Part shown: one piece after another, positions 11,424 to 37,324 of the stretch | How the letters are laid out: every line of letters starts with the position of its first letter | Numbering within the stretch: position 1 is the first letter of the stretch | From: a virus | Direction: 5' to 3' (one strand) | DNA length: 64,000 nt | Virus record (IMG/VR): IMGVR_UViG_3300031470_000033 | Coordinates: 14,222-78,221 of that record | Position numbers and translations under genes: made by a program | The notes under the pieces: model-generated | Database searches by the model: none | Seen by the model: the letters and a program-made list of their open reading frames with translations, nothing else | What the model was told of the DNA's origin: nothing

Positions 11424-11458
11424 CAGGCTAGAGGGGCGCGAGGGGCACGTAGAATCGC

Positions 11459-12345: not shown

Positions 12346-12366
12346 TAACGTCTCCCTGACCGTCGC

Positions 12367-13970: not shown

Positions 13971-14049
13971 GGCAGGCTCCTATCTGCTATCGTCTTTAGG
14001 GGCGTGTTGGTGCTTGCTACACCGTGCGCCCCGCTCCCTTAATTATACC

Positions 14050-16685: not shown

Positions 16686-16946
16686 GTAATGGTCGCACTC
16701 GCTAATGGGCACACAGACCGCCTTGGCCTCGGGCACATGCCAGCGCGTGCTGCCGTTCGACATGACACGGGCGCCGGGCGCGAACACATACTCCGTGTCG
16801 GTGGTCGCCACCAGCACACCGTCAATGGTCGTGCCCGCCTTGGTAATCATCCAGACCGTGTAGACGCGGCGTGCGTCTATAGGATCACCAGAGGCGGCCA
16901 TAGCCTCACGGAGAAGCCAGCGGGTGGCGCGATGGACGATGCTCAT
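16674..16946 (-). CDS. Small hypothetical protein
   Basis: ATGA-type overlap with upstream gene. Confidence 0.5.
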   Translation of the reverse strand: MSIVHRATRWLLREAMAASGDPIDARRVYTVWMITKAGTTIDGVLVATTDTEYVFAPGARVMSNGSTRWHVPEAKAVCVPISECDHYLRR

Positions 16947-21883: not shown

Positions 21884-22077
21884 TGTATAACGGGTAAAAA
21901 GGCAACAGGGCGTAATTATCCACCCCCAGCATACGGGAGAAAAACAGCGATTTGCGGCGTTTGCGCGCATACGCAAAAAGTGGGGGCGTTGTAGCCGTAG
22001 GAGGGAGAAGGCCAGGGAATGAAAAAGGGATGGCCTGGAGCCCTGGAAACTTTCAAGGCCATCCCGTCCGTCGCCAT

Positions 22078-22151
22078 CCGCCCGTAGCTCAGTGGATTAG
22101 AGCAAACCAATTCGCATGGGGAGGCCGTGGATTCGAGTCCCACTGGACGGA
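22078..22151 (+). tRNA. Degenerate tRNA-like element, anticodon loop centred on UCG (Arg-like), probably not a functional decoder
   Basis: Acceptor CCGCCCG/TGGACGG (one mismatch), TA-GCTC-AGTGGATTA-GAGC D arm, loop ATTCGCA on a 3-bp stem, TTCGAGT T loop with A53-C61 mismatch; no CCA. Confidence 0.6.
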
Positions 22152-22276
22152 TGCCTGTTTCATTTTACATGCAATCGTGCGTTTTGGTCAACTATTTGGG
22201 TTGACGAGGCGCGCTGAACATCCTCATGCGAGCGCGGACTGGTCCGCTCGGTCGCGTGAACGACGCTGGGAGAAGG

Positions 22277-22939
22277 TCAACCTGCCTCATCCATGTCGTC
22301 GCCGCGGCTCGTCATCAGCGCCTCCACGATAGCGGAGGGTGGCACAATGCCGATGTAGAGCGTACGAAAATGCAGGCGAGCGCGCTCTAAACGACGGGTC
22401 ACGGTTGAATCGGTCACATGTAGATGCGACGCGATGACCTTTTGCTGGATGGCAGTCCGGCGCCCGAAGGAGAGCAGACGCTGTGCCAACGTTTCCTCGC
22501 CCTGCGCGGGATCGCCCGGCGCTGCGGCGTCGTCGTCGAGCGGATAGGCCAGGACGAACGCGGCGAAATCGTCAGGGTACACTTGGGCCATCAGGTCATA
22601 CGCGCGCCGGACAGAAAAGCGGTCCACCTTGCGCATCAGGGCATCCTTGACCGTCACGTCGTAGACGTGGCTGCCCTCGTGCATCTGCTCCGTCATCGCA
22701 AAATAGGTCACCTCCGGCCGGTCAGTGTTGCGGTACGCGTCGCCTATTTCCGCGCCCACGCGCCGCGTGCGCTCGTCTGTAAATGCCTTCTGTTTGCCAA
22801 AGTTGACCGCACGGCGATCTAGACACGGTTTACACTCACACGACGGCGCGTGAAAAACACCCTTCGTCGTCACACGCGGTCGGGTGCTCTGCGGCCCACT
22901 CGCATACACGGAGCGGTGGTTCTGTGCTTTGCTTCCCAC
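22277..22939 (-). CDS. Putative late transcriptional activator (sigma70 region-4-like HTH)
   Basis: C-terminal QKVIASHLHVTDSTVTRRLERARLH; N-terminal CECKPC; located upstream of terminase genes. Confidence 0.6.
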   Translation of the reverse strand: MGSKAQNHRSVYASGPQSTRPRVTTKGVFHAPSCECKPCLDRRAVNFGKQKAFTDERTRRVGAEIGDAYRNTDRPEVTYFAMTEQMHEGSHVYDVTVKDALMRKVDRFSVRRAYDLMAQVYPDDFAAFVLAYPLDDDAAAPGDPAQGEETLAQRLLSFGRRTAIQQKVIASHLHVTDSTVTRRLERARLHFRTLYIGIVPPSAIVEALMTSRGDDMDEAG

Positions 22940-23287
22940 GAGGCGATCTCCTCTCGGAGTACAGGGCGCGTCTCAACTGGCGCGCCGTCTGCCCTCAGCA
23001 TAACGACAGGCTATGATTAGCGCCACATACTATATCGCAATCGCTATGCAAGGGTGAAAGGACGGCCGCGCCGTGTGCACGACGGTGTCGGAGGGGCTCT
23101 CCTTCGTATCCTTGCTCAACCGGCAGACCCAATCAAACAGGTTCATCGTTCCTCTCATGGTTATCGTCCTTCAGGATGCTACTAGCACGCGATAGGGACG
23201 TTGGACCAGGATGCGATGTCGCGTCGCGCCAACAGGCCGCCGACGGCGAGCGCCCCTGTCTTCCTTGTTGCCCTCTCCCTCGTGCGC

Positions 23288-23536
23288 TTATCGTACGACC
23301 TCATGGCCGTGTTCACTTAGGGCGATGATATAGGGCGTCTTCGGGTTTACCCTGTCCGACAACCGCTCGCGTTTCGGTTTCACCGCGTCGATATGCATCG
23401 TCACGAGTGGCTCACCGCAGGCGGAACACTCGACGTGGTAGGCCGCACCATCACGCGCCGCACCCTCGATCTCGGCAAGGGCTATAGGGAGCGCCACGTT
23501 ACGGCAGTAATCGCAATAGAGCCTAATGTACAACAC
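23288..23536 (-). CDS. Small zinc-ribbon protein
   Basis: CDYC and CSAC pairs. Confidence 0.5.
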   Translation of the reverse strand: MLYIRLYCDYCRNVALPIALAEIEGAARDGAAYHVECSACGEPLVTMHIDAVKPKRERLSDRVNPKTPYIIALSEHGHEVVR

Positions 23537-23582
23537 GGTGTGTCCTCCTTGCTATCGACCCCGCCTCGCTCCGCACCAGGCG

Positions 23583-24092
23583 TTAGCGGGGCGTGTCCGT
23601 CCGCTCGCCCCCGGCGCGGGCCTCGGTCAGCCCGCGCTCGGCCTCAACCTGTCGCGCCACGGCCTCAGCCTCCCGCACGACGGATGCGGGCGCGCGTTCA
23701 TGCCGCGCCTGCCAGCGCGCCCAGAGCCCCAGGACATCGCGCCTGGCAAACACGAGCCCGCCCAGCGCGCCCAGAAAGCACACAGCGGCGGGCGCGACAG
23801 TTGCGCCGTACCCGAGGGCAGACAGCGCGCAGCCACATCCGAGCGCCACGGCAAGGAGGAACCACAGCAGGTCGCCATCCGCGCGCGTCAGACCCAATCG
23901 CCGCATCGTTTCGCCCATAGCCGCGTGCCCATCCGCTAGGATGTCGCGCAGCATCACGGGCAGTACCCAGCGCACAAAAGGACGCGGCTCTCCGCTTTGA
24001 CGCGTCCACCGCGCCCGTCGCGCGCGTCTGCGGAACATCATCCGCGCCTGTCGTTGCCGTACCTGTCGCATAGTATCACTCTCCTTCATCAC
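23583..24092 (-). CDS. Membrane protein, last gene of conjugation cluster
   Basis: Two hydrophobic segments; 6 nt from upstream VirB6-like gene. Confidence 0.55.
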   Translation of the reverse strand: MMKESDTMRQVRQRQARMMFRRRARRARWTRQSGEPRPFVRWVLPVMLRDILADGHAAMGETMRRLGLTRADGDLLWFLLAVALGCGCALSALGYGATVAPAAVCFLGALGGLVFARRDVLGLWARWQARHERAPASVVREAEAVARQVEAERGLTEARAGGERTDTPR

Positions 24093-24098
24093 ACAGCG

Positions 24099-25685
24099 TC
24101 ATAGCCAGCCGGGCGCGAGGGCGCGGGCTTTGCCGCGCGCCCTGGTCGCCGCGGCCAGGGCCGGCGTCGCCATGATGTTCAGAGCGCGCCCGCCGCCACC
24201 GCCGACGCGCGCTACCGCTTCCGTCGTCAACTCCGGCGCCGCCAGCAACACAGCCACGAGCGCCACGCCCGCCGCCACGTGCACCAGCGGATTGTTGAAC
24301 ACGTCGTGCGGGTCCGTGCCCCCGGTCAACGCAAACACGAAAGCCACGCCCGCGCTTATCTCGATGACATACACCAGCGGCAGCGCCGTCAACGCCGTGA
24401 TGCTTTTGGCCCACCACGCGAAGACCGGACGTGTCGCCGGCAGCAGCACGAGCGGAATACACAACGGCGCGATGACGTAGAGCGCCACCAGGAGCACGAA
24501 TGTCCCGATACGTGTCAGCAGCATGATGCCGAACAGCACGACCATAATCACGAGCAGGACCAACGACACGAGGACGCCCAGCGTGAACTTTGCCAGGCTG
24601 GCTGTGTCGTTTTTGTCGATGGTGGTGAGCTTCGTCAAGGCGTCGTTGAGGGGCTTCAAGGCATCTTTGCCGATATAGGTGACGGCCTCCTGTATCCAGG
24701 TCCACACGCTATGCTCCACCGTCGATAGAATCGAGGCGTACCAATACACGAGGATGATCTCGCCCGCCAGGATCAGCACGGCACGCGCTGGCCTGAGCCG
24801 AAACAGGTCCACGACGTAGGCGACGACGCGCATGGACACCAGCACGCCCAACGCCGCTTTGCCGAACAGCATAAAGTAGCGCAGGAACGTGTTGAGCGGG
24901 CTGTACTGCGCGCCCGTCAGGTCGGGTTGATGCAGGATGGCCGGCACGATCCCGCCCGCGAGCGCCGTGCGCCCCCCCGCCTGGAGGTGATTCCACCACG
25001 ACAACGACCCCATCAGCAGCGACCCCATCAGCGCGCCCATGTCGATACACTGGTTGCCAAAGACGCAGAACACACCAGGCTTGTTGCCCGGCCCTGGCGG
25101 ATTCTGCACCTCCACTGCGCCCTGCGCGACTTTTGGCCCGAGGTCCTGGCCACCAAACACATCGCGTAGTGTGTGCGCCTCGATGACGTATGTGCCCGCT
25201 TTCGTCTGAGGAGGCAGGGCGCCCCGCCACGTCAACTCGCCGCGGGCGTCTGTCTTAGCCTTGTTTCCTGGGTCAGGCAGGGGTCCGTCAATCGCTTGGC
25301 CATCAGTCTTCGGGCCACCTGTCAGGTCCAACTCTAGCGACGCGTTCGGTGGCAGGTTGTGGCCAACCACGGTGATCGGTGGATTATTGTCTGCAGAGAA
25401 GGTCAATGGACTTGGCCGCACATCGAGTGTGCCGGCGTGGGGCCGCTCCGTTGCCGTCGCCACAGGCGTGTACGTCGGCCGCTCTGTTGCCGTCGCCTGC
25501 GGGGTGTACGTCGGCAACGGGGCCTGGGGCGTGTATGTCGGCAACGGGGCCAGCGTGGGCACGGGCGGGGCCGGGGCCGGGGAGGACGCTCCCCACGCGA
25601 GCGCGGGAAAAAGCACCACCACGAGGCCCGCGACTGCAAAGGTGAGGTGCGTCAGGCGGCGCGACAGCGGAGGACGCGTTCTCAT
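24099..25685 (-). CDS. VirB6/TrbL-like polytopic T4SS membrane protein with signal peptide, PTYTP repeats and an Ig-like domain
   Basis: Many hydrophobic segments in C-terminal half (LLTRIGTFVLLVALYVIAPLCI...FAWWAK); overlaps virB4 stop. Confidence 0.7.
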   Translation of the reverse strand: MRTRPPLSRRLTHLTFAVAGLVVVLFPALAWGASSPAPAPPVPTLAPLPTYTPQAPLPTYTPQATATERPTYTPVATATERPHAGTLDVRPSPLTFSADNNPPITVVGHNLPPNASLELDLTGGPKTDGQAIDGPLPDPGNKAKTDARGELTWRGALPPQTKAGTYVIEAHTLRDVFGGQDLGPKVAQGAVEVQNPPGPGNKPGVFCVFGNQCIDMGALMGSLLMGSLSWWNHLQAGGRTALAGGIVPAILHQPDLTGAQYSPLNTFLRYFMLFGKAALGVLVSMRVVAYVVDLFRLRPARAVLILAGEIILVYWYASILSTVEHSVWTWIQEAVTYIGKDALKPLNDALTKLTTIDKNDTASLAKFTLGVLVSLVLLVIMVVLFGIMLLTRIGTFVLLVALYVIAPLCIPLVLLPATRPVFAWWAKSITALTALPLVYVIEISAGVAFVFALTGGTDPHDVFNNPLVHVAAGVALVAVLLAAPELTTEAVARVGGGGGRALNIMATPALAAATRARGKARALAPGWL

Positions 25686-28600
25686 GACGCTTCCCGCATA
25701 GGGGTCGCGCCATCGGCAGGGGTCGCGGCGTCCGGGAGGTCGGGGAGGTCGGGGAGGTCGGTGGTCCAGCCACGCGCGGCGCGGCGGGCGCGGATCGCGG
25801 CCACCACGCCGGGCCAGAGTCCACCGTGCGCCGCCGTCCAGGCGTCGCGCGCGTCGCGCTCGGCGGGCTGTGTGGTGAACAGCGCCAGGTCCACGTCGGG
25901 GATCTCTAGATTAATTTTCCCGCGCTTGGCGATGCTGGAGCGTTGCGAACGCACGATCAGGTACGCCTGGGCGTAGCCGTCCGCGGACGCGTCAGGGGGG
26001 ACGACATGCAGGCCGGGCAGCTCGCCCGCCTCGCGCTCAGTAATCATGAGCGTCCGGGCCAGCCACGCGCTGCCGGCCTCCGCGCCCACCTGTTCGTTGC
26101 GCGTGTTACACACGATAATCACCGGGAGCGTGTTGAGCATGTCCAGGGCGCGCGCGGACGCCTTCATATGCGTGATGTACTGCGTGCCAAAGAACACGCG
26201 CCGGCGCTTGTGCCGGCTCTCCAGCGTGATCGTGCCGATGTGCTCGGCGGCCACGTCGATCACGTGGTGCCCCTCGTCGATCACCTCGACCTCCAGGGCC
26301 GGGCGACCATCGACGCGCCGGAGGTGCGCGCGCGCGGCCGTGCGCAGCTCCATGAGCCCCTCCATGATGCGGAAGGCGGCCACGGCGATTTTGCCTTTGC
26401 AGTGCCGCACATCGAGCACGACCATCGGGGCCAGCACGTCCGCCGTCATCTCCCGATCGGCCAGCGACGCGTAGATACCCTCACCAACGTACTCGGAGAA
26501 CCCGAGCACCATGTTCTCTAATTCAACCTTGCGCGCGGCCGGTACTTTCAGGCCCGTCAGGTGCGCGATCATCTCGCGCTCAAGCGGGTAGAGGTGCTCG
26601 TCGGGGCCGCGTTCGCGGGCGTACACGGCGCGGATCGCCGCCGCCAGCGTAGCGTATTGCCAACTCGTCAGCCGTTCGACCGACTCGCCCCGTCCAAAGA
26701 AGGTCTCGTGCAGGGTGAGCATCTCGGTCACGCGCGCCTCCGCGTTGAGCCGCGCGTAGAGCTGCCACGGGTTGAGCGCCGGCGGCGTCACCCCCCGCTC
26801 CTTATCCAGCAGCGTCAGGTAGGCGCCGCACCAGAGCGCGCACAGGGGCCGGTAGCTCCCCGAGCTGTCGAACACGACGGCCCCGTTGCCCTCGGCTAAC
26901 GACTGTTTCGTGAGCTCATTCATGATGACGGATTTGCCGCTGTTGGGAACGCCGAAGACGCCGACCTGCTGGGTGCCGATGTCCGTAGCGTCGAGGTTGA
27001 GGTAGACCGGCTCCTTGGTGTCCGACGTGACGCCCAGTGGCATCCCCGACGTATGACCAGGGTTGTCCGTGTGGTACGGGAACGTCGTGGCCACGGCCGC
27101 GGTCATGTCCCGCAGCAGATGCAGGTCCCCACCATCGGCGGTGGGCAGCGTGGCCCGGTACAGGTCGAGTTGGTCGAACCAGCCCTGCCCGATGCCGCAC
27201 TTGGCCCCGCGTAGCGCCGCCTTCGCCAGGGCAACGCGCCGGCGCAGCGCGGCGGGCGAATCGGCCAGGACCGTCACGATCAGCGAGATCTGGAAGATAT
27301 TGGTGTCGGGGTCCTCGGTCTCGTCCAGGGTGCGCCGGTGCTCCGCTTCAGCACGCGACAGGCGCACTTTCCGGCCGCCAGTGCGGTCCGCGCGGGTCTC
27401 GTTGAACGCCAGCGCCTTGCCGGCCAAGCGTTCGACACGCCCGGCCTCGCGGGTCTGGTCGAGGCCCGCAATAGTCAACGCGACGCGCGCGTGGGGCAGC
27501 GCCAGCAGGGGCTTGACCCAGCCGGGATAGGCCGTTTGCCGCAGGCGCGTGACGTACAAAGAGCGGGCGTAGCGCACCCCCCACGGTCCCGCGACCCGCA
27601 CGTAGCCCGCGTGTTCGTGCAGGTCGAGCGCCGTGGCGCGCGCGTGCAGCGGGTCCAGGCGCGGCGCGCCGGTCACCACCTGCCGCGGCTCCCGCCCCTG
27701 CGGGGGTGGCTCATCGTGCGTTGGCGCGGCGGCCGTGGACCGCACGAGCAGCGCGGCCATCTCGTCGGGGGACAGGCGTCGGTTGTCCAAGCCCATCGCC
27801 GTGTACAGCCGGCTCACGTCGGTGAGGTAATGCCCGAACTCGGTCCGGCGCTGCTCCTCCACCGCCGCCTTGTCGCGCTGGAAGCGGCTGGCCAGGACCT
27901 CCAGGCCCACGGGCCGGCGCGCTTCCAGCACCAGATAGGCGCGCCGGTCGGGGATGTCCGTCGCGTAGCGCCGGGTGTACCACTCGTTCTCCAGCGCGAG
28001 GAGCGCGGCGGTCGGGCCGTGGCCGGGCAGGCCGCGCTGGCGGAGGTTCAGGTCGGCCAGGGCCGCGTCCCCGCGCACGGCGCGGTTGTCGATGACGACG
28101 CGCGCGCGCTGGCTCGGCGCCAGCAGCGCGGCCGCGTCGGCGAAGAGCGCGAGGATGCGCGCCTGGTCCTCATCGTCACGTCCCGACAGGTTGAGGCCCT
28201 GCACGGCGCGCACCTCCACCAACCGGCCGTCCGGACGCGTGAGCAGCCCGTCCTCGGTGAGGGACAGGCCCGCGCTCGCGTCCGTGGAGCCCGACAGGAC
28301 GCGCCAGGAGGGCGCGGGGGCCGTCAGCGCGGCCCACACAGCCCCGAGGGTTACCAACCCGCGGCGCCCCGCCGCCGTGGCGACCGCCGCGCCCCAGGCC
28401 ACCCACGCGCCGGCCACCGGCGCCCAAGCGCGCCGCGCACCCCAGGCCGGCCGGGCGGGGCGGGGGGGGAGCGCCGGTGGCGCCCAGGACGCCAGGGGGT
28501 TAACGGGAGGGTGCTGGGCGTAGCGATGGCGCCGCAGCACGAACGCCTCAATCTGACGGAGGTAAGGCTCGCGCGCCGTGGTGGACCAGTAGGCCAGCGC

Positions 28601-28825
28601 CACGCCCAGCACGACGCCCGGTAGAGCAAAGTCAAGGGCATCCCCCAGGGCCGCGCCCAGGGCAACGAACGCGCCCACCACGCCGGCCAGCACGCAGAGG
28701 GCGACCCAGCCGAACTGATCCCAGGGCGCGCCTAGGTCCGCAAGGGGACCTGGCGCGCGGTCGATGTACTGCTTCGTGTGCACGCGCGCGTAGGGCGTCG
28801 CGTGTTCCTGTTCGGCTGTCGTCAT
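25682..28825 (-). CDS. virB4: VirB4-like T4SS ATPase with N-terminal PrgI/VirB3-like membrane segment
   Basis: 1047 aa; GVPNSGKS Walker A, VFDSSGSY, EVIDEGHH Walker B, SRHKR...GTQ; N-terminal TM hairpin. Confidence 0.85.
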   Translation of the reverse strand: MTTAEQEHATPYARVHTKQYIDRAPGPLADLGAPWDQFGWVALCVLAGVVGAFVALGAALGDALDFALPGVVLGVALAYWSTTAREPYLRQIEAFVLRRHRYAQHPPVNPLASWAPPALPPRPARPAWGARRAWAPVAGAWVAWGAAVATAAGRRGLVTLGAVWAALTAPAPSWRVLSGSTDASAGLSLTEDGLLTRPDGRLVEVRAVQGLNLSGRDDEDQARILALFADAAALLAPSQRARVVIDNRAVRGDAALADLNLRQRGLPGHGPTAALLALENEWYTRRYATDIPDRRAYLVLEARRPVGLEVLASRFQRDKAAVEEQRRTEFGHYLTDVSRLYTAMGLDNRRLSPDEMAALLVRSTAAAPTHDEPPPQGREPRQVVTGAPRLDPLHARATALDLHEHAGYVRVAGPWGVRYARSLYVTRLRQTAYPGWVKPLLALPHARVALTIAGLDQTREAGRVERLAGKALAFNETRADRTGGRKVRLSRAEAEHRRTLDETEDPDTNIFQISLIVTVLADSPAALRRRVALAKAALRGAKCGIGQGWFDQLDLYRATLPTADGGDLHLLRDMTAAVATTFPYHTDNPGHTSGMPLGVTSDTKEPVYLNLDATDIGTQQVGVFGVPNSGKSVIMNELTKQSLAEGNGAVVFDSSGSYRPLCALWCGAYLTLLDKERGVTPPALNPWQLYARLNAEARVTEMLTLHETFFGRGESVERLTSWQYATLAAAIRAVYARERGPDEHLYPLEREMIAHLTGLKVPAARKVELENMVLGFSEYVGEGIYASLADREMTADVLAPMVVLDVRHCKGKIAVAAFRIMEGLMELRTAARAHLRRVDGRPALEVEVIDEGHHVIDVAAEHIGTITLESRHKRRRVFFGTQYITHMKASARALDMLNTLPVIIVCNTRNEQVGAEAGSAWLARTLMITEREAGELPGLHVVPPDASADGYAQAYLIVRSQRSSIAKRGKINLEIPDVDLALFTTQPAERDARDAWTAAHGGLWPGVVAAIRARRAARGWTTDLPDLPDLPDAATPADGATPMREAS

Positions 28826-28837
28826 CCGTCCTCCCCG

Positions 28838-29209
28838 TTACCCGGTAATCGCACCGAACTTATCGGTTAGGTACGTCAAGAAGGGACCCAGAATGAAAAA
28901 GACGGCGAACAGGCCAAGAACGGTGCGCATCAGGATCGTGCGCCCCATCTGCACGCCCGCAATCATCAGGACAACGCCAATGACGGCGAGCCCAAGGATG
29001 ATGCCGATGCCACGCTTCAGCACCGCCGTCTTGAAGTCGTCGCCAACCCCAAAGAGTTGGTCGAAAATGTTGGGCGTGCCTCCGTTCCCGCCTCCCCCTG
29101 GAACGGGTGGTCCCGCGACGATAGCGTCCAGCACGCCGTGTGTCGCCGTCAGTCTATGCGCCACAAAGGGCGCTGTCGTATGCAGGACGTGTAGTGTCTC
29201 GTAGATCAT
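28838..29209 (-). CDS. VirB2/TrbC-like pilin
   Basis: 123 aa with two hydrophobic helices separated by a short loop, directly upstream of virB4. Confidence 0.6.
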   Translation of the reverse strand: MIYETLHVLHTTAPFVAHRLTATHGVLDAIVAGPPVPGGGGNGGTPNIFDQLFGVGDDFKTAVLKRGIGIILGLAVIGVVLMIAGVQMGRTILMRTVLGLFAVFFILGPFLTYLTDKFGAITG

Positions 29210-29245
29210 CGTGTGCCCCTCGTCCTTTCCCCGTACACCGTGTAC

Positions 29246-31681
29246 TCAGTCCGCGTCGTCGGTCCAGTCGGTCGCCGTATCCCATCCATCATCGATCTCA
29301 TCCCCCTTACCTCCATCACTCTCCACGTCCTCCTTTTCCTCCTTACCCTCACCGTCATCTTCCGCCACGGCGGACACCGTTTCCGTCGCGCCTCCGGCAG
29401 CGCGACGCAGAGGCGTGTCTAGACTTTTCGACACGCCCCCCGGTCCGCGCGTCGCCTCCTGTTCGCCTAGCAGCGTTGCCAGGGTACAGCGCGCCTTCGC
29501 CGCTGTTACCTCAGCCACCAGCGTCTTATCCGCGAACCAGAACGCAATATGAACTTGAATGGGGCTCCCACCGTTTCGGTGGATCAGGACCGTCCCCTTG
29601 CGCGACAGGGTGCGCACCGTAATGCGTTTGTCCTTGTACTGGCTGGCGTAATAGGCTTTGTCCTCCGCGTTGCTCCGATAGAACTGCGCCTGCATTGTGA
29701 CGTTCGGCCAGATGCGGTCGGCCTTGGCTTTGTACTCCGTGCGAATGTCCCGCCGCCCCTGCGTGGCGAAGTAAATGCCCACGTCTCGGAAGCCCATGGC
29801 GCTAAAGTGCATCTCCATCTCAGGCACCTCGCCCATGTTTGCGAACTCGTCGGCGATGATACGCACGGGCCGGGGCAACGGACGGTTGCCCTCACCCGCG
29901 ATGCGGTCGAACTCTCCCATCGCGCTCGTCAAAAACGTCACCAGGAACGGACGTACCGTCGCGTACGACTTCATGGGCACGGTCACGATGACGACGGTCG
30001 GCTCGGCCACGAACGTGGCCCAGCCCATCTCCATCCCATCCACGCTCTCACCCACCGTCGCACGCTGGTCTAGGGTCTCGGTTTGCAGGCGCTCCATGAC
30101 CTGCCGGTAGCCCGACATGATACCCTGCTTCTGCCGTGGTGACGTGGCCATCCCCGCCAGGGTTTGCACAATATCCGTCAGCGTCTCGTCCCCCGACGCC
30201 TCCACCCGCGCCTTGAGCGCCATTAGCCGCTCGTCCACTTCCTCCTCACTGCCGGCCTCCATCGCTCGATACCACCGCGCCACCGACAGCAGCGAGACCG
30301 CGCGCGGGTCGCGACCCGCCGCCTTTTCCTCGGCGCGCGTCATAATAACGCCCCCCGTCAAGAGGTCGATGGTCCCCTTCGTCCAGTAGTCTGACTCATC
30401 CTTGCCCGTCACCGACCGCACGAAAATAGAGGTGTACGCCTTGACCTGACCTGTACTTGGCATCAACGCCAGCGGATTGTAGCGCAGGCCACCCGCCCGC
30501 ATGGGGTCGTACACGCGCACGCGGTAGCCCCGTGCCCGCAGAATGCCGCCGAACTCCTCGGCCAGCTCTCCCTTCGGGTCGAACAGGATCAGCGACGCCC
30601 GCCGGGCGAGGGGGACCGTTGATTCGGCCAATATCCACGGCGCGAGGAATCCGGCCGTTTTGCCGGCGCGTGTCGCCGCCATGACGCCGCCATGCTGATT
30701 CTGCGCGGAGCGGGCTAGGTACACCATGCGCCCGCTCTGCACGTCGATCCCGAGCGGCCAGTCCCCCGGCTCTCCCGCCAGCCACCCCTCGTCCTCCAAC
30801 TCCTCTTCCGTGGCGAACGGCGGGTCCACCACCACACTCGCCTCTTCGATCGCCTTATCCACCTCCCTCTTGCGCAAGGCTTTGGCGACCTCATCGGCGG
30901 TCGTGACCGGTGCAATCTCCTCCTGAACCCGCTTCTTGATTTCCGCTTTCCTGACCGCCTCGCGGGCCTCGTATTCCTCCAGCGCCGCCGCCCCCTGTAG
31001 CGCGCCCCCGCTCCCCGTTCCTCCTGTAGTAGCGCCGGCCGTGAACGTTTCACGCACGACCGCCATCCTGACGGCGCGGGCGACGGTATCCTTCTCCACT
31101 CCCTCGCGCACCAAATCGGCCAGCGTCGTCGTGTCAAACTCAGCCTTTGCCATCTCGGCGATCTTCGCCTTGCGCGCCTTCTCGCGTGCCTCGTGCATCT
31201 CCAGCGCCCGCGCCTCAACCGACCGCCCCGCCTTGCCCTCCATCCTGGCCCGTTCAGCCGCAACCTTGACGGCCTCGTGCTCGGCCGCAAGGTCCTCACG
31301 CGCCCTCTGCTTCGGCGACTTCCGCGCACGCTCCTCCTTGCGTTGCGCTACCTGCTCGGCCTGCGCTAGTTGCGCGTCGATCTTCGAGACGCGCGACGCG
31401 CGCACGACGCCCCCCGCGACCACGCCGAGGATGATGAGCCCGCCAAGGCCCCCACCTGCCGCCGCCAGCTCAACCGTGACATGCGGGACTGCTGGATCGG
31501 CCCAGCGCGCCTGACCCCACGCCATGAGGGCGTCCGCGTCCAGCCGCAGCAGCGCCGCGTTCAGGGCCGCGTCCAACGCGGGGACGGACGAGCCGGCGTG
31601 CGCGATCACGGGCCGCAGCACCACGCCTGCCGCCGCACACAGACTGGCCCCCAGACCCAGCGCTGTCAGCGTCCCTTTCAT
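29246..31681 (-). CDS. virD4: Type IV coupling protein (VirD4/TraG family)
   Basis: N-terminal TM segments; AATRAGKT Walker A, LFDPKGEL, YNPL, YW, IIADEFANMG Walker B, ATQ. Confidence 0.9.
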   Translation of the reverse strand: MKGTLTALGLGASLCAAAGVVLRPVIAHAGSSVPALDAALNAALLRLDADALMAWGQARWADPAVPHVTVELAAAGGGLGGLIILGVVAGGVVRASRVSKIDAQLAQAEQVAQRKEERARKSPKQRAREDLAAEHEAVKVAAERARMEGKAGRSVEARALEMHEAREKARKAKIAEMAKAEFDTTTLADLVREGVEKDTVARAVRMAVVRETFTAGATTGGTGSGGALQGAAALEEYEAREAVRKAEIKKRVQEEIAPVTTADEVAKALRKREVDKAIEEASVVVDPPFATEEELEDEGWLAGEPGDWPLGIDVQSGRMVYLARSAQNQHGGVMAATRAGKTAGFLAPWILAESTVPLARRASLILFDPKGELAEEFGGILRARGYRVRVYDPMRAGGLRYNPLALMPSTGQVKAYTSIFVRSVTGKDESDYWTKGTIDLLTGGVIMTRAEEKAAGRDPRAVSLLSVARWYRAMEAGSEEEVDERLMALKARVEASGDETLTDIVQTLAGMATSPRQKQGIMSGYRQVMERLQTETLDQRATVGESVDGMEMGWATFVAEPTVVIVTVPMKSYATVRPFLVTFLTSAMGEFDRIAGEGNRPLPRPVRIIADEFANMGEVPEMEMHFSAMGFRDVGIYFATQGRRDIRTEYKAKADRIWPNVTMQAQFYRSNAEDKAYYASQYKDKRITVRTLSRKGTVLIHRNGGSPIQVHIAFWFADKTLVAEVTAAKARCTLATLLGEQEATRGPGGVSKSLDTPLRRAAGGATETVSAVAEDDGEGKEEKEDVESDGGKGDEIDDGWDTATDWTDDAD

Positions 31682-31908
31682 CGGTCACGCTCCTCTGCCC
31701 GTTCCATCTGGCGTTCCTCACGCCGCCTCTCGGCGCGCAGGCGCAGCTTGAGGGTGTCCTCGCGGTCACCCTCTGCCCGCTCCCGCTCGCGCATCACCGT
31801 CCGGTCCATGCGCTCCTCACCGCACACCGTGCAGGCGCGGTACAACGCACCGTCGCGTTCGGTGAACGTCGTGCCCCAGGTATGCCACCCCGTCGCACAT
31901 CCGTTCAT
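31678..31908 (-). CDS. Small hypothetical protein (C...H.W...CxxC)
   Basis: Between relaxase and virD4, ATGA overlap. Confidence 0.5.
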   Translation of the reverse strand: MNGCATGWHTWGTTFTERDGALYRACTVCGEERMDRTVMRERERAEGDREDTLKLRLRAERRREERQMERAEERDR

Positions 31909-31921
31909 CGCTCAATGCTCC

Positions 31922-32698
31922 TCATCGCTCACGCTCCTGTTCGTGCGTCCGCTCAGATAGACGCGTGATGGCGCGCCGGGCCGTGCGCTCCACGACGCGC
32001 GGGCGCTCAACCGTGCGCTCTCGCGTCGGAGCAGAGCAATAGGCCAGGCCCCGGCCTTCCAGGAAGCGCGCATCATCGGTCGTCAGTCGGACCAAGCCTT
32101 GCCCATAGCGGTGGTAGCCCGCGCCGGATAGGGCCACATGCACATGCGGCTTCGGCAAGCCCGCCGCCGTCCAGCCCGCGTGCTGCACGGCCACCCAGCG
32201 CAGCGCGCGGAAGCCTTTGCGCTCACGCAGGTCAGCCAGAACGCGCGTTGTCCAGGCGGGCCACCCATCAGGAGAGACGCGCTCAGTGCTGTGCGGCGAC
32301 AAGACGAGGTGGTGATACCCAACGACCTGCCGGTGCGCCAACACGTAGCCGTGCACGCCCTCCAGCCCTACCAGATGGTGGGATGCGCGTGACACGCCGC
32401 TAGCGCTGTTCGTAGCGGCGCCCATGTCCGGGCTGTCAGCGTGCTCATCATCTCCCGTTGTTAGCGAGGTCAGGCGTGTCGCCACGATATGACCGTCAGC
32501 GTCAAACAGGGGACGGGGCGCAACCAAAGGTTCGTCATGCCCCGTGGCATCCGCGTCCGGCCGCGTCGCCATGTAGGTCAGCAGCGCGCCCAGCCGTCCG
32601 GTCACGCGCCGACGCGCCTCGGGCATTGTCTCGCGCCGCCCGTCCCGCACGCGCATGCGCCGCGCGTAGCTCTCATATCCTTTGAGCGACACAATCAC
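31922..32698 (-). CDS. HUH relaxase (MOB-P/MobL-like, short)
   Basis: LTYMATRP catalytic Tyr motif, YHHLVLSP, WVAVQH...PHVHVAL metal-binding motif; adjacent to MobC-like gene and virD4. Confidence 0.8.
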   Translation of the reverse strand: MIVSLKGYESYARRMRVRDGRRETMPEARRRVTGRLGALLTYMATRPDADATGHDEPLVAPRPLFDADGHIVATRLTSLTTGDDEHADSPDMGAATNSASGVSRASHHLVGLEGVHGYVLAHRQVVGYHHLVLSPHSTERVSPDGWPAWTTRVLADLRERKGFRALRWVAVQHAGWTAAGLPKPHVHVALSGAGYHRYGQGLVRLTTDDARFLEGRGLAYCSAPTRERTVERPRVVERTARRAITRLSERTHEQERER

Positions 32699-33105
32699 GA
32701 CGCCACTCCCACGTCCTCTGTCCCCGTTCCCGTTCCTGTGTCACCCACATCTGCCGTCAACACGAATAAAGGATTGTCCTGGCCGGCGCCGCGCCTGCGC
32801 CATTCGTTGACACGTTCCTCCATGCGCGCCCGCTCCTCTGTCCGTAGTAGAACGCTGTACTCCAACAGGCGCCGCATATCGGCCCGCGCCCGCGCCGTGT
32901 CCGTGGTGATAGCCCGCAACGCCTCAGCTACTTCGTCGCGCAGCGGCCCCTCGTCGTCCCGTGCGATTTCGCGCTCAATGGCCGCGATTACGAAGTCTTG
33001 CAAGCTCACGCCACGGCGCGCCGCCGCCAGTTTGGCCGCGTCTCGTACCAGCAGGGAGCCACGCGCGATAATCTGCACCTGCCCCCGTGTCGTGTCGGCG
33101 CTCAT
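32695..33105 (-). CDS. MobC-like ribbon-helix-helix relaxosome accessory protein
   Basis: VQIIARGSLLVRDAAKLAAARRGVSLQDFVIAAIERE; overlaps relaxase start. Confidence 0.65.
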   Translation of the reverse strand: MSADTTRGQVQIIARGSLLVRDAAKLAAARRGVSLQDFVIAAIEREIARDDEGPLRDEVAEALRAITTDTARARADMRRLLEYSVLLRTEERARMEERVNEWRRRGAGQDNPLFVLTADVGDTGTGTGTEDVGVAS

Positions 33106-33259
33106 TGTGGTTTCCTCGACCTACCCTATCTATCGTCCGTGTACGTCACAGCATCTGTGCTATCAGGCGTGCTATCGCTGTTATGGTGTGTGTTGAGTGG
33201 ACGTGATAGCAGCGCGACCTGCACGCTTTAGCTTGCCTATTCGCGCCTATCGCCCTCAT

Positions 33260-33850
33260 CTACCGCGCCCCCACAGGCGCCGACACCGCAGGCAACCCCA
33301 CCACGGCGCGTATGCCGGTGAACAGCGCATCGTGGGCCGCAGGGACGTAGGCCACCAGCACGAGGGCGATACAGGCTATCGTGATGAGGCCAGCGACCAG
33401 TGTGGCGACCAAGCTATCTGAGCGGAAGTGAAACCAGCGAGGGGTGATATGCCAGTGCGTCCACAGTCCGGGAATCAGAGGCACGCCATCTTTGGTCATG
33501 GCGTCTTCAGCGAGGTGCAGCAGCCCACCAGCCCACCAGGCACCCACCAGGGGCGCGAGCCAGGGAGCGTTCGTCCCCGACGTGGCGTAGACGCTCAGGG
33601 CGGCTAGGGCCACCCACAGCGGCACAAGATGCGTCAGCCCGCGATGGCCGAATGACACCTGGCGCACCAGCCACGAAAGCCAGGGCACGCGCGATGATAA
33701 CAAAGAATGCTCGGTATCGAGGTCGGGAGTCAGACCGGCAATCCCCGCCACAATGGCGCAGGGCGCAAGCATCCAGGGAGACGCCCCTACCAGAGGCACA
33801 GAGGCCGCGCCTAACGCGGTCGCTGATAGACCGTGCGGAACTCCGTTCAT
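33260..33850 (-). CDS. Membrane metal-dependent hydrolase (YdjM-like)
   Basis: H near N-terminus, PDLD, GHRGLTH, HLAEDAMTKDGVP motifs; hydrophobic. Confidence 0.8.
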   Translation of the reverse strand: MNGVPHGLSATALGAASVPLVGASPWMLAPCAIVAGIAGLTPDLDTEHSLLSSRVPWLSWLVRQVSFGHRGLTHLVPLWVALAALSVYATSGTNAPWLAPLVGAWWAGGLLHLAEDAMTKDGVPLIPGLWTHWHITPRWFHFRSDSLVATLVAGLITIACIALVLVAYVPAAHDALFTGIRAVVGLPAVSAPVGAR

Positions 33851-33956
33851 TCCCTACCCCTTTCTATGCGACAATCGCTGCCGCTTCATGGCATCAGTGT
33901 AGCATAATGTTCCCAACGTATACCAACTATAATACGAGAGAAACGGCAACGGTAGC

Positions 33957-34247
33957 ATGTCAGGGGGTGAATATGTGAGAATAGGTGCAGAAACACTGCG
34001 TCGGCGATTAGTGAGGAGAGTTCTGTCAGTGCCACGTAAGGCGCGCGAGGGCTTTGAATGGGTATCGTCCTATGTCCCCATTCAGGTGTATCGCACGCTC
34101 ATTGACATTGCTCGCGCCGAAGGGCGCACCAAATCGGTCATGGCATGGCGGCTGATGGCAGAGGCGATGAAGGCTAGGGGACACGATGTCGATGCGGACT
34201 TCCCCGACCCCACACGCGGCGCACCCCCGTCAGCGCCACCGAACTAA
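33957..34247 (+). CDS. Small ribbon-helix-helix regulator (divergent)
   Basis: WVSSYVPIQVYRTLIDIARAEGRTKSVMAWRLMAEAM; true start may be GTG near 34030. Confidence 0.55.
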   Translation: MSGGEYVRIGAETLRRRLVRRVLSVPRKAREGFEWVSSYVPIQVYRTLIDIARAEGRTKSVMAWRLMAEAMKARGHDVDADFPDPTRGAPPSAPPN

Positions 34248-34266
34248 CCTGTCCATACTGAAACAG

Positions 34267-34299
34267 AGAGGGGTGGTAGCTATCGGCTACCACCCCTCT
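34267..34299. terminator. Bidirectional terminator between convergent genes
   Basis: AGAGGGGTGGTAGC-tatcg-GCTACCACCCCTCT with T-runs on both sides. Confidence 0.7.
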
Positions 34300-34325
34300 T
34301 TCACGGCCTTAATATTGGAGGCGCG

Positions 34326-34778
34326 TCAGATATGGGGTTGACCATGCATCGCCATCCACTCCGCGATGTAGTCTTCCATGGTTTCTTCCATCACCTCCTA
34401 CATCTTGCGATCTTCCTGAGCCGCCACCCGGCGCATGCGCCTCACCAAACTAGCGCGGACAGCAAAGCCATGGGGTTTGCGCTCTGGGCCTTCGACCGGG
34501 ACATACTGTTTGTTGGTCAGAGATGCCCCTTCGGCTAGATAGCGCCGAATGTACTCTTTCTCAACCGTGCTAACTGAAGCCCTATCCACCGTAGCGAGGA
34601 TATGCATGTGCGGGCGTTTACCCTCTGAGCGGATGGCAGATATCCATCCAGCGTTAAGGCCGTCATGGTTGTTGATGTGGCTAGTTAACCGCATAGCTGG
34701 CTGTGTTGTTTGCCCGACATATCGCACCACGCCCAGGTGGTCCATCAGGGCGTAAACGTACACCGCATCATCCATCAC
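34326..34778 (-). pseudogene. GIY-YIG nuclease-RHH fusion whose RHH is interrupted by an in-frame TAG at 34398-34400
   Basis: VYVYAL..RYVGQT..RLTSH..EKEYI..LTN; C-terminus ERKPHGFAVRASLVRRMRRVAAQEDRKM*EVMEETMEDY matches the ParG-like gene, which has TAC (Tyr) at the stop. Confidence 0.7.
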
Positions 34779-34822
34779 GGCTTACCCCGTATGCGACGAC
34801 AAACTCGCGTAGCGCCTGCACG

Positions 34823-35542
34823 TCAACCCTCCTCACGTTGCAGGTATTGAGTCATAGCCTCGTCCATGACTTCGTAGAGCTTGCGCTTCTTTTTGATAGC
34901 GACGATCTTCAGCCGGTCTACTAAATCGGGGGACACTGCGATCCCGCGCGCACCTGAAACAGGCGTGGACAAGGGCGCCTCCTGTTTTTCTTGCTGCGCC
35001 AGATATAACTCAACCGCCTCTTCCAGCGCATCGTACAGTTTGAAATGCCGGCGCACAGCTACGATCCGCAGTCGTTGGCGCAAATCTTCTCGCAACTGCA
35101 TCGCCGCCACCGAACGAGTCAGTGCCGTCAGGGGTGGTTTTGGAATAGACCGCTGCATATCTAGCATTTCAGCCGCCGTGATGGTTATGCCGCTAAAGCC
35201 TCCCCACATGAGCGTGTAATAGGGATTGTATTGTGAGTTGGTCAGTGGTTCCCCTTGCGTGACGTATCGGACGATATACCTCTTCTCGCAGGCATGCGCT
35301 TCATCCCGAGGCACAAGGTCAAGCACGCGCATTAATGGGGGCAAACCGTGTTCTTTCAACCCGTTGATCCACGCCATCTTAATCGGCGTGCCAACAGGGG
35401 TCTGCCAATGAGCAGCAAGGCGGTTCGTCATCGACTCTTCACTCGCCTCCTCAACCTGGCCGATATAGCAGGTAGCACCACAGGGGTCTTCAAGCCCATA
35501 GATAACGGCCGTCCTACTCGGAATATCCAATGAAACGTCCAT
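34823..35542 (-). CDS. GIY-YIG nuclease fused to two tandem RHH domains
   Basis: VIYGL..CYIGQ..RLAAH..EKRYI..LTN; then LREDLRQRLRIVAVRRHFKLYDALEEA and VSPDLVDRLKIVAIKKKRKLYEVMDEA. Confidence 0.8.
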   Translation of the reverse strand: MDVSLDIPSRTAVIYGLEDPCGATCYIGQVEEASEESMTNRLAAHWQTPVGTPIKMAWINGLKEHGLPPLMRVLDLVPRDEAHACEKRYIVRYVTQGEPLTNSQYNPYYTLMWGGFSGITITAAEMLDMQRSIPKPPLTALTRSVAAMQLREDLRQRLRIVAVRRHFKLYDALEEAVELYLAQQEKQEAPLSTPVSGARGIAVSPDLVDRLKIVAIKKKRKLYEVMDEAMTQYLQREEG

Positions 35543-36051
35543 TATGCCCGCACCTCGTGCTTGCCGATGAAATCGCGTAGCGCCTCCTCCATCGCTTCAT
35601 AAAGCGGTCGCTGCTGCTTCGCAGCAATTGACTTGACCCCAGCCACCAAATCAAGGTCGAGAGCATACCCCCGATTACGACGCCTAATATCGTCGTAATC
35701 ATCAAATTCAGGGTCAACGAAAAACATGCCAGCAAGAGGATTATGCATTCTATTCGTCAGGAGAACACCAGCAGCCGCACAATCCTCTATGTACCGCTTC
35801 TCTTCGGCATCGGCATCCAACTTGGAAACCGTCGTCAATATACGTACTCCCGGCATTAAGTCGTCATGCATGAGTCTTCGCAAGACCGACCGCTGCGCTC
35901 TACTGGCAGACGTTAACCGCATGTGCTGTATCAATCGCGCATCAGGGTCAAGACTCTGACCGATGTAGAAAATGCAGTTTTTGTTCAGCGGGTCTGTTAA
36001 ACCGTAAATATAAACAACGGCCGCGTCACACGTTGCCATGACTAATCTCAT
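35542..36051 (-). CDS. GIY-YIG nuclease fused to one RHH domain
   Basis: YIYGL..FYIGQS..RLIQH..EKRYI..LTN; C-terminal GYALDLDLVAGVKSIAAKQQRPLYEAMEEALRDF. Confidence 0.8.
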   Translation of the reverse strand: MRLVMATCDAAVVYIYGLTDPLNKNCIFYIGQSLDPDARLIQHMRLTSASRAQRSVLRRLMHDDLMPGVRILTTVSKLDADAEEKRYIEDCAAAGVLLTNRMHNPLAGMFFVDPEFDDYDDIRRRNRGYALDLDLVAGVKSIAAKQQRPLYEAMEEALRDFIGKHEVRA

Positions 36052-36343
36052 TACGGGCGAGGAAATCCTCCATGGCTTCTTCCATCACCTCGTACATCTT
36101 GCGATCTTTTTGAGCCGCCACCCGGCGCATGCGCTTCACCAAGCCAACGCGTACTGCAAAACCATGAGGCTTACGCTCACCGTCATCCACCTTAGCGGGA
36201 GTTGCCCCGGATGCGGGCTTGCTATCCTGCATATCTGCACTTATAGCGCCCTCGGTCGATAGCCGCACGCCACGACCGCGCCGTATCTCTGGCAGGGGGG
36301 CGGGCGCGTTGAGGAGGGCGTCCAGGTCTTTCTTAGACGGCAT
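36026..36343 (-). CDS. ParG-like (type Ib) centromere-binding RHH protein
   Basis: Flexible N-terminal tail then KPHGFAVRVGLVKRMRRVAAQKDRKMYEVMEEAMEDFL; ATG 36343 overlaps parA stop. Confidence 0.7.
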   Translation of the reverse strand: MPSKKDLDALLNAPAPLPEIRRGRGVRLSTEGAISADMQDSKPASGATPAKVDDGERKPHGFAVRVGLVKRMRRVAAQKDRKMYEVMEEAMEDFLARNEISHGNV

Positions 36344-37112
36344 AGCGTACCCCCACTTCCGCAGCAAGCGCGGTGTAGGCGGACGCCCCCATGCTCGTCG
36401 GCGCATACCGAGCAATGGGCAATCCGGCCAACGGCGCTTCAGCCAGGCTGATGTTGGTCGGAATGACCGTATTGAACACGAGGTCGCCGTAGCGATCCCG
36501 CACCTTACGCTCAATAGCGTCGGCTAGCTTCGTCCGTGTTGCCAGCGTGCACACCACACCGCCGACATGGAGCGGCGGATTCAAGTCGCGCACCAGCGCG
36601 ATGGTCGCTTCGAGTTGGGGCAACGCCCTGAATGAATAAGCATGCAGTTGGAACGGCACCAGCGCCGCATCGGCCGCGGCGAGCGCATTGAGCGTGAACA
36701 AGCCCAACGACGGCGGCGGGTCAATCAGGATGTAATCGTATCGTGCCCGCACGTCAACGAGCGCCTTGCGCAGCAAGAGTTCGCGCCCGACCTTGCCTGC
36801 GAGTTCCATTTCGGCGCCCGCCAATGCAAGCGTTGAAGGGATCAAGTCTAGATGTCCCGTTGTATTCAATCCCCCAGCGTTGGGCACAATGGCAAAGTCC
36901 GCGCCCCGCTCGGGGTTCAGCAAAACTTCATAAATGCTGAACTGCAAGGCGTCGGGATCAAGACCTAACCCCTGCGTAAGATTGGCTTGAGGGTCTAGGT
37001 CGATCAGCAACACACGCGCTCCCCTATCCGCGAGCGCCACACCCACGGAGAGCGTCGTCGTCGTCTTACCAACACCGCCCTTCTGCATCGTTGAAGCTAG
37101 AATATACCCCAT
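36333..37112 (-). CDS. parA: ParA/Soj partition ATPase (no N-terminal HTH, type Ib)
   Basis: QKGGVGKTTT, LIDLDPQANLT, YILIDPPPSLG, VIPTNISLAEAP. Confidence 0.95.
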   Translation of the reverse strand: MGYILASTMQKGGVGKTTTTLSVGVALADRGARVLLIDLDPQANLTQGLGLDPDALQFSIYEVLLNPERGADFAIVPNAGGLNTTGHLDLIPSTLALAGAEMELAGKVGRELLLRKALVDVRARYDYILIDPPPSLGLFTLNALAAADAALVPFQLHAYSFRALPQLEATIALVRDLNPPLHVGGVVCTLATRTKLADAIERKVRDRYGDLVFNTVIPTNISLAEAPLAGLPIARYAPTSMGASAYTALAAEVGVRYAV

Positions 37113-37150
37113 ACCGCCCCTCCTGTCTGCTCATACTTTTGCATAAATAC

Positions 37151-37175
37151 ATTATAGCATATGTGCAATATAGCA
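37151..37175 (-). promoter_or_regulatory. Extended -10 promoter (TGCTATAAT) for the par block with a TGCTATA direct repeat; candidate operator/parS
   Basis: Plus-strand ATTATAGCA at 37151-37159; TATAGCA again at 37169-37175; AT-rich; GGAGG RBS before parA. Confidence 0.55.
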
Positions 37176-37226
37176 GTTTCATGACGCGCAAGACGGCGCG
37201 TTTGCGCGTAAAGGGTAATACAAACA

Positions 37227-37266
37227 CAAGGGGGCCGGCGCTACAGTGGTAGCGCCGGCCCCCTTG
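37227..37266 (-). terminator. Intrinsic terminator separating the phage early operon from the par/conjugation block
   Basis: 18-bp perfect inverted repeat CAAGGGGGCCGGCGCTAC/GTAGCGCCGGCCCCCTTG followed by TGTTTGTATT on the minus strand. Confidence 0.7.
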
Positions 37267-37324
37267 CGCGCGAATGCCATGGATCGCCAAGTGTATAAAG
37301 TGTCACCATGACACCAACCGTGTG

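Follow-up and report, generated by a model that had tools for sequence, protein, structure and literature searches.

Can one genome be organized to spread both as a virus and by conjugation? Autonomous horizontal transfer is seen as having two separate routes, phages and conjugative elements, and classifiers and host-range models assume one or the other. The known overlaps are tandems of elements lying side by side, recent plasmid fusions and the FtsK-type Streptomyces element pZL12. The question is raised by a stretch of viral DNA of 64,000 nucleotides (here called the window), comprising bases 14222–78221 of one 81,614-bp virus record (81.6 kb; IMG/VR record IMGVR_UViG_3300031470_000033) from a rock metagenome. 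An earlier note on this DNA had described the region 23288–37266 as an apparently complete conjugation core within a tailed prophage and proposed a hybrid between a phage and an integrative and conjugative element (ICE). Our results suggest that temperate tailed phages of one lineage, found in rock communities, have a minimal conjugation module of monoderm style built into their genomes and kept by selection, and that they may move both as virions and by contact-dependent transfer. We estimate the probability of this explanation at roughly 55%.

An operon of conjugation genes

The module is a single co-oriented operon that codes for a YdjM-family protein, a ribbon-helix-helix (RHH) protein, an HUH relaxase, a VirD4-type coupling protein, a small pilin-like membrane protein, VirB4 and VirB6. 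All genes of the block are intact and lie on the minus strand, with a spacing between neighbors of –4 to +46 nt. The core of relaxase, coupling protein, VirB4 and VirB6 is thus as intact, co-oriented and tightly packed as the earlier note had claimed. The first conserved gene of the module (33260–33850, minus strand) codes for a YdjM-family membrane hydrolase (PF04307, E = 7.5e-17), which is also found directly upstream of the RHH gene in the related contigs L003, L006 and L020. Between it and the RHH gene lies a conserved intergenic region of 154 bp (33106–33259, minus strand) with three GATAGCA-type repeats and 95% identity to L003. It contains two copies of the 8-nt repeat GTGCTATC and the inverted pair TGCTATCA/TGATAGCA, and is a candidate operator and/or origin of transfer (oriT).

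The RHH-like DNA-binding protein (136 residues; 32695–33105, minus strand) is presumably a relaxosome accessory protein or regulator, and its gene overlaps the relaxase start by 4 nt. It had been read as MobC, an identity that we reject: there is no PF05713 match at E = 0.01 or better, and the protein instead has weak matches of RHH type (NCBIfam YlcI/YnfO, 0.01; TTHA0139 in the PDB, 0.095). The relaxase gene (31922–32698, minus strand) is followed by an open reading frame (ORF) for a small Cys-rich protein of 76 residues (31678–31908, minus strand), read as a Zn-ribbon, which lacks a family match and overlaps the start of the coupling protein gene.

The VirD4-type coupling protein (type IV coupling protein, T4CP; 29246–31681, minus strand) has 811 residues, an N-terminal transmembrane segment and a long charged region. 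It matches PF02534 (5e-32), PF12696 (9e-11) and the CD1115 family of NCBIfam (1e-35), contains the NTPase motifs (Walker A at residue 335, IIADE at 608) and, in an Atlas structure comparison, resembles the CD1115 family with template-modelling (TM) scores of 0.80–0.82. The VirB4-family ATPase (25682–28825, minus strand; 1047 residues) has a membrane-spanning N-terminal extension and a Walker A motif at residue 625. It matches PF19044 at 1.8e-8, above the Pfam cut-off, as well as the NCBIfam families TraC (5e-15), VirB4_plasma (5e-13), CD1110 (6e-13) and VirB4_CagE (5e-9). Directly upstream of its gene lies that of a 123-residue protein with two C-terminal transmembrane helices (28838–29209, minus strand), a VirB2/TrbC-like candidate. 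Its position, the two helices and a lead from Atlas feature matches to TrbC/VirB2-like clusters (0.88–0.89) speak for the VirB2-like assignment made in the earlier note; a match to a hidden Markov model (HMM), on the other hand, is lacking.

The polytopic channel protein of VirB6/TrbL type (24099–25685, minus strand; 528 residues) matches PF04610 at 1.7e-7, with 31.7 bits against a cut-off of 25.9. It has a signal peptide, a Pro/Thr-rich linker and an extracellular domain. The VirD4, VirB4 and VirB6-like assignments of the earlier note are therefore all borne out by family matches. The last conserved gene of the module (23583–24092, minus strand) codes for a membrane protein of 169 residues without a family match, with 89% identity over 131 residues in L003 and 63% in L005. 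An 82-residue Zn-finger ORF (23288–23536, minus strand), which has no match in L003, lies where the module meets the late region, in a variable joint. No homologues of VirB7, VirB9, VirB10, VirB8 or VirB11 were seen, and a PHROGs search of the ORFs in the block and the tail region gave almost no matches.

Identification of the relaxase

The 258-residue ORF by itself has no sequence match in Pfam, NCBIfam, PHROGs or the PDB. An exhaustive search recovered 30 distant homologues, which form a small family, and their alignment displays the motifs in the order typical of relaxases: a tyrosine, an h-h-L-S-P motif with H129, and H173-x11-H185-x-H187. Y42 is conserved in 23 of 24 homologues, and H129, H173, H185 and H187 in 25–27 of 27. 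Searched against the PDB, the profile has a sole match, to the entry 9qq7, deposited as “Relaxase”, and aligns with it at the HUH motif. The AlphaFold (AF2) model of the protein (pLDDT 76, with a disordered insert at residues 79–106) superimposes on 21 solved relaxase domains with Z scores of 7.7–9.7 over ~150–170 residues, including those of pKM101 and pCU1 TraI, TrwC, F TraI, MobA and NES. The best score, 9.7, is obtained for the trans-esterase domain of pKM101 TraI, whereas the next-best folds are a plant-virus Rep protein at 7.0 and unrelated proteins at 6.1, 5.1 and lower. The profile motifs, the homologue family, the PDB match and the predicted fold establish the 258-residue protein as an HUH relaxase, in agreement with the earlier note.

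In motif order (Tyr, h-h-S-P, H-x11-H-x-H) and in predicted fold, the protein is like the MOB_P/PF03432-type relaxases (TraI of the RP4/pKM101 class) and other HUH relaxases. It differs from the MOB_P type in consisting of the trans-esterase domain alone, in having no Pfam or NCBIfam match of its own and in belonging to a family of only about 30 representatives. Two relatives, P0009 and P0013, do have weak PF03432 matches. The genomic context of the homologues is that of conjugation genes: one homologue adjoins a T4CP or is fused with it, with a CHAP hydrolase, PrgI and VirB4 next in line, and a 40%-identical relative has the same order YdjM–RHH–relaxase–T4CP as the window. In the distant relative L008 (positions 10001–12631), the relaxase domain is joined to the start of the T4CP in one ORF of 632 residues, followed by a T4CP fragment of 127 residues, which reflects either a true fusion or a frameshift.

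Physical linkage of the module to the phage genome

As the earlier note had it, the block lies between the early genes and the late regulator and terminase: ParA stands on one side, and a sigma-like regulator and the large terminase (TerL) on the other. A strong intrinsic terminator on the minus strand (37225–37268), with a GC-rich stem of 20 bp followed by a T-run, ends the early operon and marks the right border of the region. After it come, in the direction of transcription, the gene of the ParA partition ATPase (36333–37112, minus strand; PF13614, 3.5e-49), variable small RHH and GIY-YIG genes, and the conjugation block. The sigma-like late regulator (22277–22939, minus strand; weak Sigma70_r4_2 matches) lies directly downstream of the module and is 100% identical in L010, 82% in L003 and 61% in L019.

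Contigs from four runs were mapped over window positions 20–40 kb. In X2, which belongs to a different study, a 13.6-kb contig is unbroken from 22114 in the sigma-like gene to 34263, resumes at 37325 and spans the whole module. A 39-kb contig in X3 spans 23317 to past 39.9 kb. The depth within the block equals that outside it in X1, X2 and X3 (35–38, 42–44 and 71–74, respectively). At the junctions for which the earlier note had suggested a coverage check, there are thus spanning contigs and equal depth inside and outside the block.

The conserved block, here called type A, extends from ~23.6 kb to ~33.3 kb. Its left joint at 23225–23319, around the non-conserved 82-residue ORF, is a mosaic point. 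Here the identity to L010, a 97%-identical IMG/VR contig, ends at 23319, 121 nt before the end of L010 itself, and unitigs break or branch in X1 and X3. The right joint falls within the YdjM gene. At least two further variants diverge at the left border, namely the L010 end and a minor X1 branch; neither the 121-nt L010 end nor the X1 branch has a match in the sequences searched. The partition/GIY-YIG-RHH region (33687–37325) is the most variable part of the neighborhood. From ParA to the module there is a run of small genes of RHH and GIY-YIG-RHH type (33957–36514), with Pfam matches to GIY-YIG and RHH. In X2, unrelated sequence of 1292 nt takes the place of 3061 nt of the ParA/GIY-YIG region; in X3, 671 nt take the place of 1927 nt.

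Could the arrangement be a recent accident, i.e. an assembly chimera, a nested ICE or integrative and mobilizable element, or a fresh cointegrate, possibly decaying? The GC content of the block, 0.65–0.72 compared to 0.55–0.60 in the immediate flanks, would fit such an origin, as would the unitig breaks and variant branches at the left joint. However, other phage segments are equally GC-rich, the junctions are spanned at equal depth in independent studies, and the slot is occupied in relatives at 80% and at about 24–36% identity. All ORFs are intact, with ratios of nonsynonymous to synonymous substitution rates (dN/dS) below 0.6. Between the window and L003, dN/dS is 0.17 for the RHH protein, 0.17 for VirB4, 0.25 for the relaxase, 0.33 for the T4CP and 0.40 for VirB6, compared to 0.25 for the portal protein and 0.06 for TerL. 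The values of the module, 0.17–0.40, are near that of the portal, which implies that its genes are maintained by selection.

The block also lacks a recombinase of its own. A scan of the larger block ORFs revealed no domain of an integrase or transposase, and repeats flanking its borders are at chance level (two shared 11-mers seen, 1.2 expected), so that the earlier observation of no separate integrase, transposase or border repeat stands. A nested ICE with its own recombinase is rejected on these grounds. A phage–ICE tandem is likewise rejected, since the 81.6-kb record contains a single integrase, the block is internal and without flanking repeats, and the slot is conserved in diverged relatives. 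The packed, intact genes, the linkage in independent samples, the positional conservation and the purifying selection thus argue against a chimera or a recent cointegrate. The assembly chimera or plasmid/ICE cointegrate that the earlier note had kept as its alternative is therefore unlikely, also in view of the synteny in diverged relatives; we regard a recent accident of any kind as largely refuted and highly improbable.

One slot with two module types

The relatives show that the slot is a stable feature of this phage group. In L003, a 69.9-kb JGI contig, the genes for ParA, YdjM, RHH, relaxase, T4CP, small transmembrane protein, VirB4, VirB6, transmembrane protein, sigma-like regulator, TerL and portal follow one another as in the window. 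Protein identities are 75–97% for module and head genes (91% for the T4CP), 65% for ParA and 36% for YdjM. The stretch RHH–relaxase–T4CP is the most conserved between the two, with 95–96% DNA identity.

Searches with the sigma-like protein, and then with a divergent VirB4, led to three further relatives, L019, L020 and L021. In L019 and L020, T4CP–VirB4–VirB6 are kept upstream of the sigma-like gene, TerL and portal, at a module identity of about 24–36%. In L020, terminase and portal are 92% and 91% identical to those of the window, but the identity of the module at this position is far lower: 44% for YdjM, 32% for the T4CP, 24–27% for VirB4 and 30% for VirB6 (over its full length). L019 is diverged throughout (TerL 57%, sigma-like regulator 61%), with the gene order unchanged. 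This type-B module (L020 positions 6279–14856, L019 positions 297–7699; the slot corresponds to window positions 23.6–33.9 kb) comprises YdjM, an RHH protein of 165 residues, T4CP, two small transmembrane proteins, VirB4, VirB6 and a protein of 181 residues. In it the RHH gene is directly followed by that of the T4CP.

The earlier note had asked for related phages with and without the block; the same slot turns out to be filled in L003, L019 and L020, in type B without this relaxase. Terminases and portals that are 91–92% identical next to deeply diverged modules in one slot suggest that the phage group keeps the position of its type IV secretion system (T4SS) module and exchanges whole alleles. 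By analogy, this is like the way in which phages swap other functional modules. In its widest form, the idea would be that a relaxase/VirD4/VirB4 machine is a standard, exchangeable module of this tailed-phage lineage with at least two deeply diverged alleles in one slot, and that such dual-mode elements move their genomes in capsids or through cell contacts. We put this wider idea forward tentatively, as somewhat short of an even chance.

Is the module used for conjugation?

Several results weigh against a module for self-transfer. No match to the relaxase profile was found in any frame of 23 kb of type-B sequence, so the conserved core of the slot is YdjM–RHH–T4CP–small transmembrane proteins–VirB4–VirB6–transmembrane protein, with the relaxase excluded. 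As type B lacks this relaxase family, self-transfer led by a relaxase in the classical way may not be what the module does in every member. Two ORFs that precede the type-B module (303 and 211 residues) have no PDB sequence match; a hidden relaxase was not found there, but may be present. In the intergenic region 33106–33259 no significant hairpin was detected, DNA folding being no better than for shuffled sequences (z = –1.1), and the region therefore remains a candidate oriT only. The scores of VirB4 and the T4CP fall under the curated equivalog cut-offs of NCBIfam, which makes VirB4 a distant family member. No VirB8/TcpC-like protein or adjacent wall hydrolase was recognized at the module. 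Species genomes and IMG/VR were searched with VirB4, with the T4CP and with an alignment of T4CPs; no relatives were recovered, nor are there any among 185,579 species genomes. The predicted relaxase–RHH complex scored 0.00, which is evidence in neither direction.

Some of these results would be explained if T4CP–VirB4–VirB6 were an accessory that served the phage in another way than by self-conjugation. The machine might export DNA or protein, mobilize other DNA or, in a filamentous host, pass replicating genomes from one connected cell to the next. The type-A relaxase would then be an add-on or a rolling-circle replication enzyme. Type B supports such a role, as phages with a 92%-identical terminase retain YdjM, RHH, T4CP, VirB4 and VirB6 without this relaxase; the oriT search, which gave no significant hairpin, points in the same direction. 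On the other hand, the type-A genes for RHH, relaxase and T4CP are translationally coupled and are the very stretch that is most conserved relative to L003, and type B may hold a relaxase of an unrecognized kind. Moreover, the best-known role of T4CPs is that of a substrate receptor in conjugation, and 253 of the 316 PLSDB plasmid records with a match to this T4CP are typed as conjugative. We therefore consider a role outside self-conjugation unlikely, and keep to a conjugation module that is an intrinsic part of the phage.

A transfer route consistent with such a module can be outlined. Upon induction or derepression, the RHH protein would bind the conserved repeats upstream of its own gene, the 154-bp region acting as operator and possibly as oriT. 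The HUH relaxase, through Y42 and H173/H185/H187, would nick a nearby oriT on excised or episomal phage DNA and remain on the 5′ end. The VirD4-type coupling protein would pass the relaxase–DNA complex to the VirB4/VirB6 channel with its small membrane subunits. Single-stranded phage DNA could then enter a touching neighbor cell and be re-established through phage replication, ParA and the integrase. We infer all steps from nicking onward.

The phage genome

Nearly every gene of the window lies on the minus strand. In the order of transcription, it starts with a tyrosine integrase (63133–64000 and continuing past the window, plus strand; PF14659 and PF00589), the sole integrase of the record. 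The early operon follows, with an IscB-like RRXRR-HNH protein, a DNA methylase, Rad52, PrimPol, RepO, DnaC and DnaB. Beyond the conjugation block come the sigma-like regulator, a tRNA-Arg, the large terminase (17853–19502, minus strand; PF03237, 3.3e-7, with matches in 2354 phage records), a capsid-fold gene, the portal protein (14050–16131, minus strand; a weak PF05136 match, 91–96% identity in L010 and L020) and the major capsid protein (4234–5493, minus strand; PF25209, 7.5e-21). A tape-measure-like protein of 1092 residues with an SLT domain is encoded outside the window in the same record. The markers of a tailed temperate phage, known here from genes alone, are thus present: TerL, portal, capsid, tape measure and tyrosine integrase. 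ParA and the replication genes would fit a phage-plasmid; an integrase is present as well.

These genes bear on whether the element is a phage at all. It might instead be mainly a conjugative plasmid or ICE with domesticated or defective particle genes, similar to a gene transfer agent or a transducing particle. ParA, integrase and conjugation module together are a typical ICE or plasmid kit; most ORFs of the virion region lack a PHROG or Pfam match, so that the set of virion and lysis genes may be incomplete. However, TerL, portal, major capsid protein, the second capsid-fold gene and the SLT tape measure are intact, phage-type replication and recombination genes are present, and the head genes are strongly conserved in relatives, as also reflected in the dN/dS of TerL. 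The record and its close relative are moreover filed as viral genomes. A plasmid or ICE with particle remnants thus appears quite improbable, and the element is best read as a phage with a built-in conjugation module.

The term prophage used in the earlier note is not supported by the record. No host genes are recognizable at either end of the record, and the ends share no attachment-site (att) repeats of 15 nt or longer. This justifies the term temperate phage genome but not that of integrated prophage, and the record may represent a free or episomal genome. Of the phage–ICE hybrid, what holds is a core that is embedded, intact and linked to the phage in independent samples; an integrated prophage state is not supported, and conjugation with an escape from receptor-limited host range, as proposed in the earlier note, would go beyond this.

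Comparison with known systems

The module most resembles the minimal conjugative T4SS of monoderm bacteria (MPF-FA/FATA; the CD1110/CD1115-type VirB4/VirD4 of Bacillota elements with PrgI/PrgH-like parts) in having a relaxase, an RHH accessory protein, a CD1115-like T4CP, VirB4, a VirB6-like channel and small membrane proteins. Both do without the outer-membrane core of VirB7, VirB9 and VirB10, and relatives of the relaxase adjoin CHAP, PrgI and VirB4. In contrast to the monoderm systems, the module sits in the genome of a tailed phage and not in a plasmid or ICE, its T4CP is only ~24% identical to any T4CP in PLSDB, a VirB8/TcpC-like protein and an adjacent hydrolase are not recognized, and VirB4 and T4CP score under the curated cut-offs. 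The block had no megablast match in the phage and plasmid collections.

In phage–ICE tandems, according to Huang et al. 2026 (PMC13651849), two separate elements lie side by side at an att site, and the authors state that they are not hybrids. As in those tandems, phage and conjugation functions here move as one unit, and the phage integrase may serve excision. Here, in contrast, the module is set within the phage, with early operons on one side and late operons on the other; it brings along neither a recombinase nor att repeats, and diverged phages carry it in a conserved slot. A documented precedent for an element with both modes is Streptomyces pZL12, a phage and a conjugative plasmid that uses an FtsK-like Tra route (Zhong et al. 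2010, cited in PMC3583192 and PMC4487206). As these citing papers present it, pZL12, with ParA/ParB, phage particles, conjugation and a high-GC monoderm host, combines the two in one replicon like the present element, known here from genes alone; unlike the window element, it has, by the same accounts, no relaxase/VirD4/VirB4 T4SS. The E. coli conjugative phage-plasmid p1002-1 is described as a fusion of a known conjugative plasmid and a known phage-plasmid (10.1101/2025.03.14.643293). It also carries conjugation genes on a phage element, but it is proteobacterial and its module is not conserved across a lineage. P1-derived plasmids acquire mob/oriT only once phage genes are lost (PMC10879196). 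Our literature search turned up no account of a tailed-phage lineage to which a relaxase/VirD4/VirB4 module is intrinsic.

Among 50,697 deposited phage records there is no VirB4 homologue, which points to a gap in the reference collections; the T4CP has three weak matches there, all in unannotated faecal contigs. Near-identical DNA is restricted to rock metagenomes. The T4CP is closest to families from Bacillota and Actinomycetota, and the Atlas neighbors of the small membrane protein and VirB4 belong to Actinomycetota and Chloroflexota. These affinities fit with a monoderm host, without being proof of one. From the Atlas neighbors and the habitat, the host is probably a high-GC monoderm such as an actinomycetote or chloroflexote.

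If the proposed explanation is correct, a single genome can stably unite the strategies of phages and conjugative elements through a conserved, selected and swappable relaxase/T4SS slot. Such phages would offer a concrete system for asking when a virus favors transfer by contact over lysis. Contact would provide a route for virus spread in dry, diffusion-limited biofilms and past receptor barriers, and tools that sort contigs as either virus or plasmid would misplace such genomes.

Other features of the record

A secreted SLT/Rpf-like transglycosylase (46402–46926, minus strand; PF06737, 4e-5, and PF01464, 1.5e-4) with an N-terminal transmembrane or signal segment is encoded inside the early region, distant from the lysis and tail genes and 13 kb from the module. 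Speculatively, it could be a VirB1-like wall hydrolase of the T4SS. A second capsid-fold gene (16943–17824; PF25209, 3e-9) lies between terminase and portal and is replaced in relatives by a shorter gene with 31–38% identity.

Two segments outside the module resemble insertions. The 1.28-kb segment 20289–21572 carries an HNH endonuclease/HTH gene (21005–21553, plus strand); X2, X3 and X4 have 92 nt in its place, and L003 and L010 lack it. A mobile homing endonuclease has probably inserted here. A GIY-YIG/NUMOD3 endonuclease gene (13125–13970) within 12961–14071, between the portal and the next head gene, is also missing from L003 and L010, which makes it a second likely insertion of this kind. 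The tRNA-Arg(TCG) at 22077–22152 lies on the plus strand, against all its neighbors, between the HNH insert and the sigma-like gene, and the unitigs of all runs break there. The IscB-like protein of the early operon, with RRXRR and HNH domains, is encoded at 58248–59735, and a TnpB gene (OrfB_IS605/Cas12f-like) is found among the tail genes of the same record (L001 positions 12069–13379).

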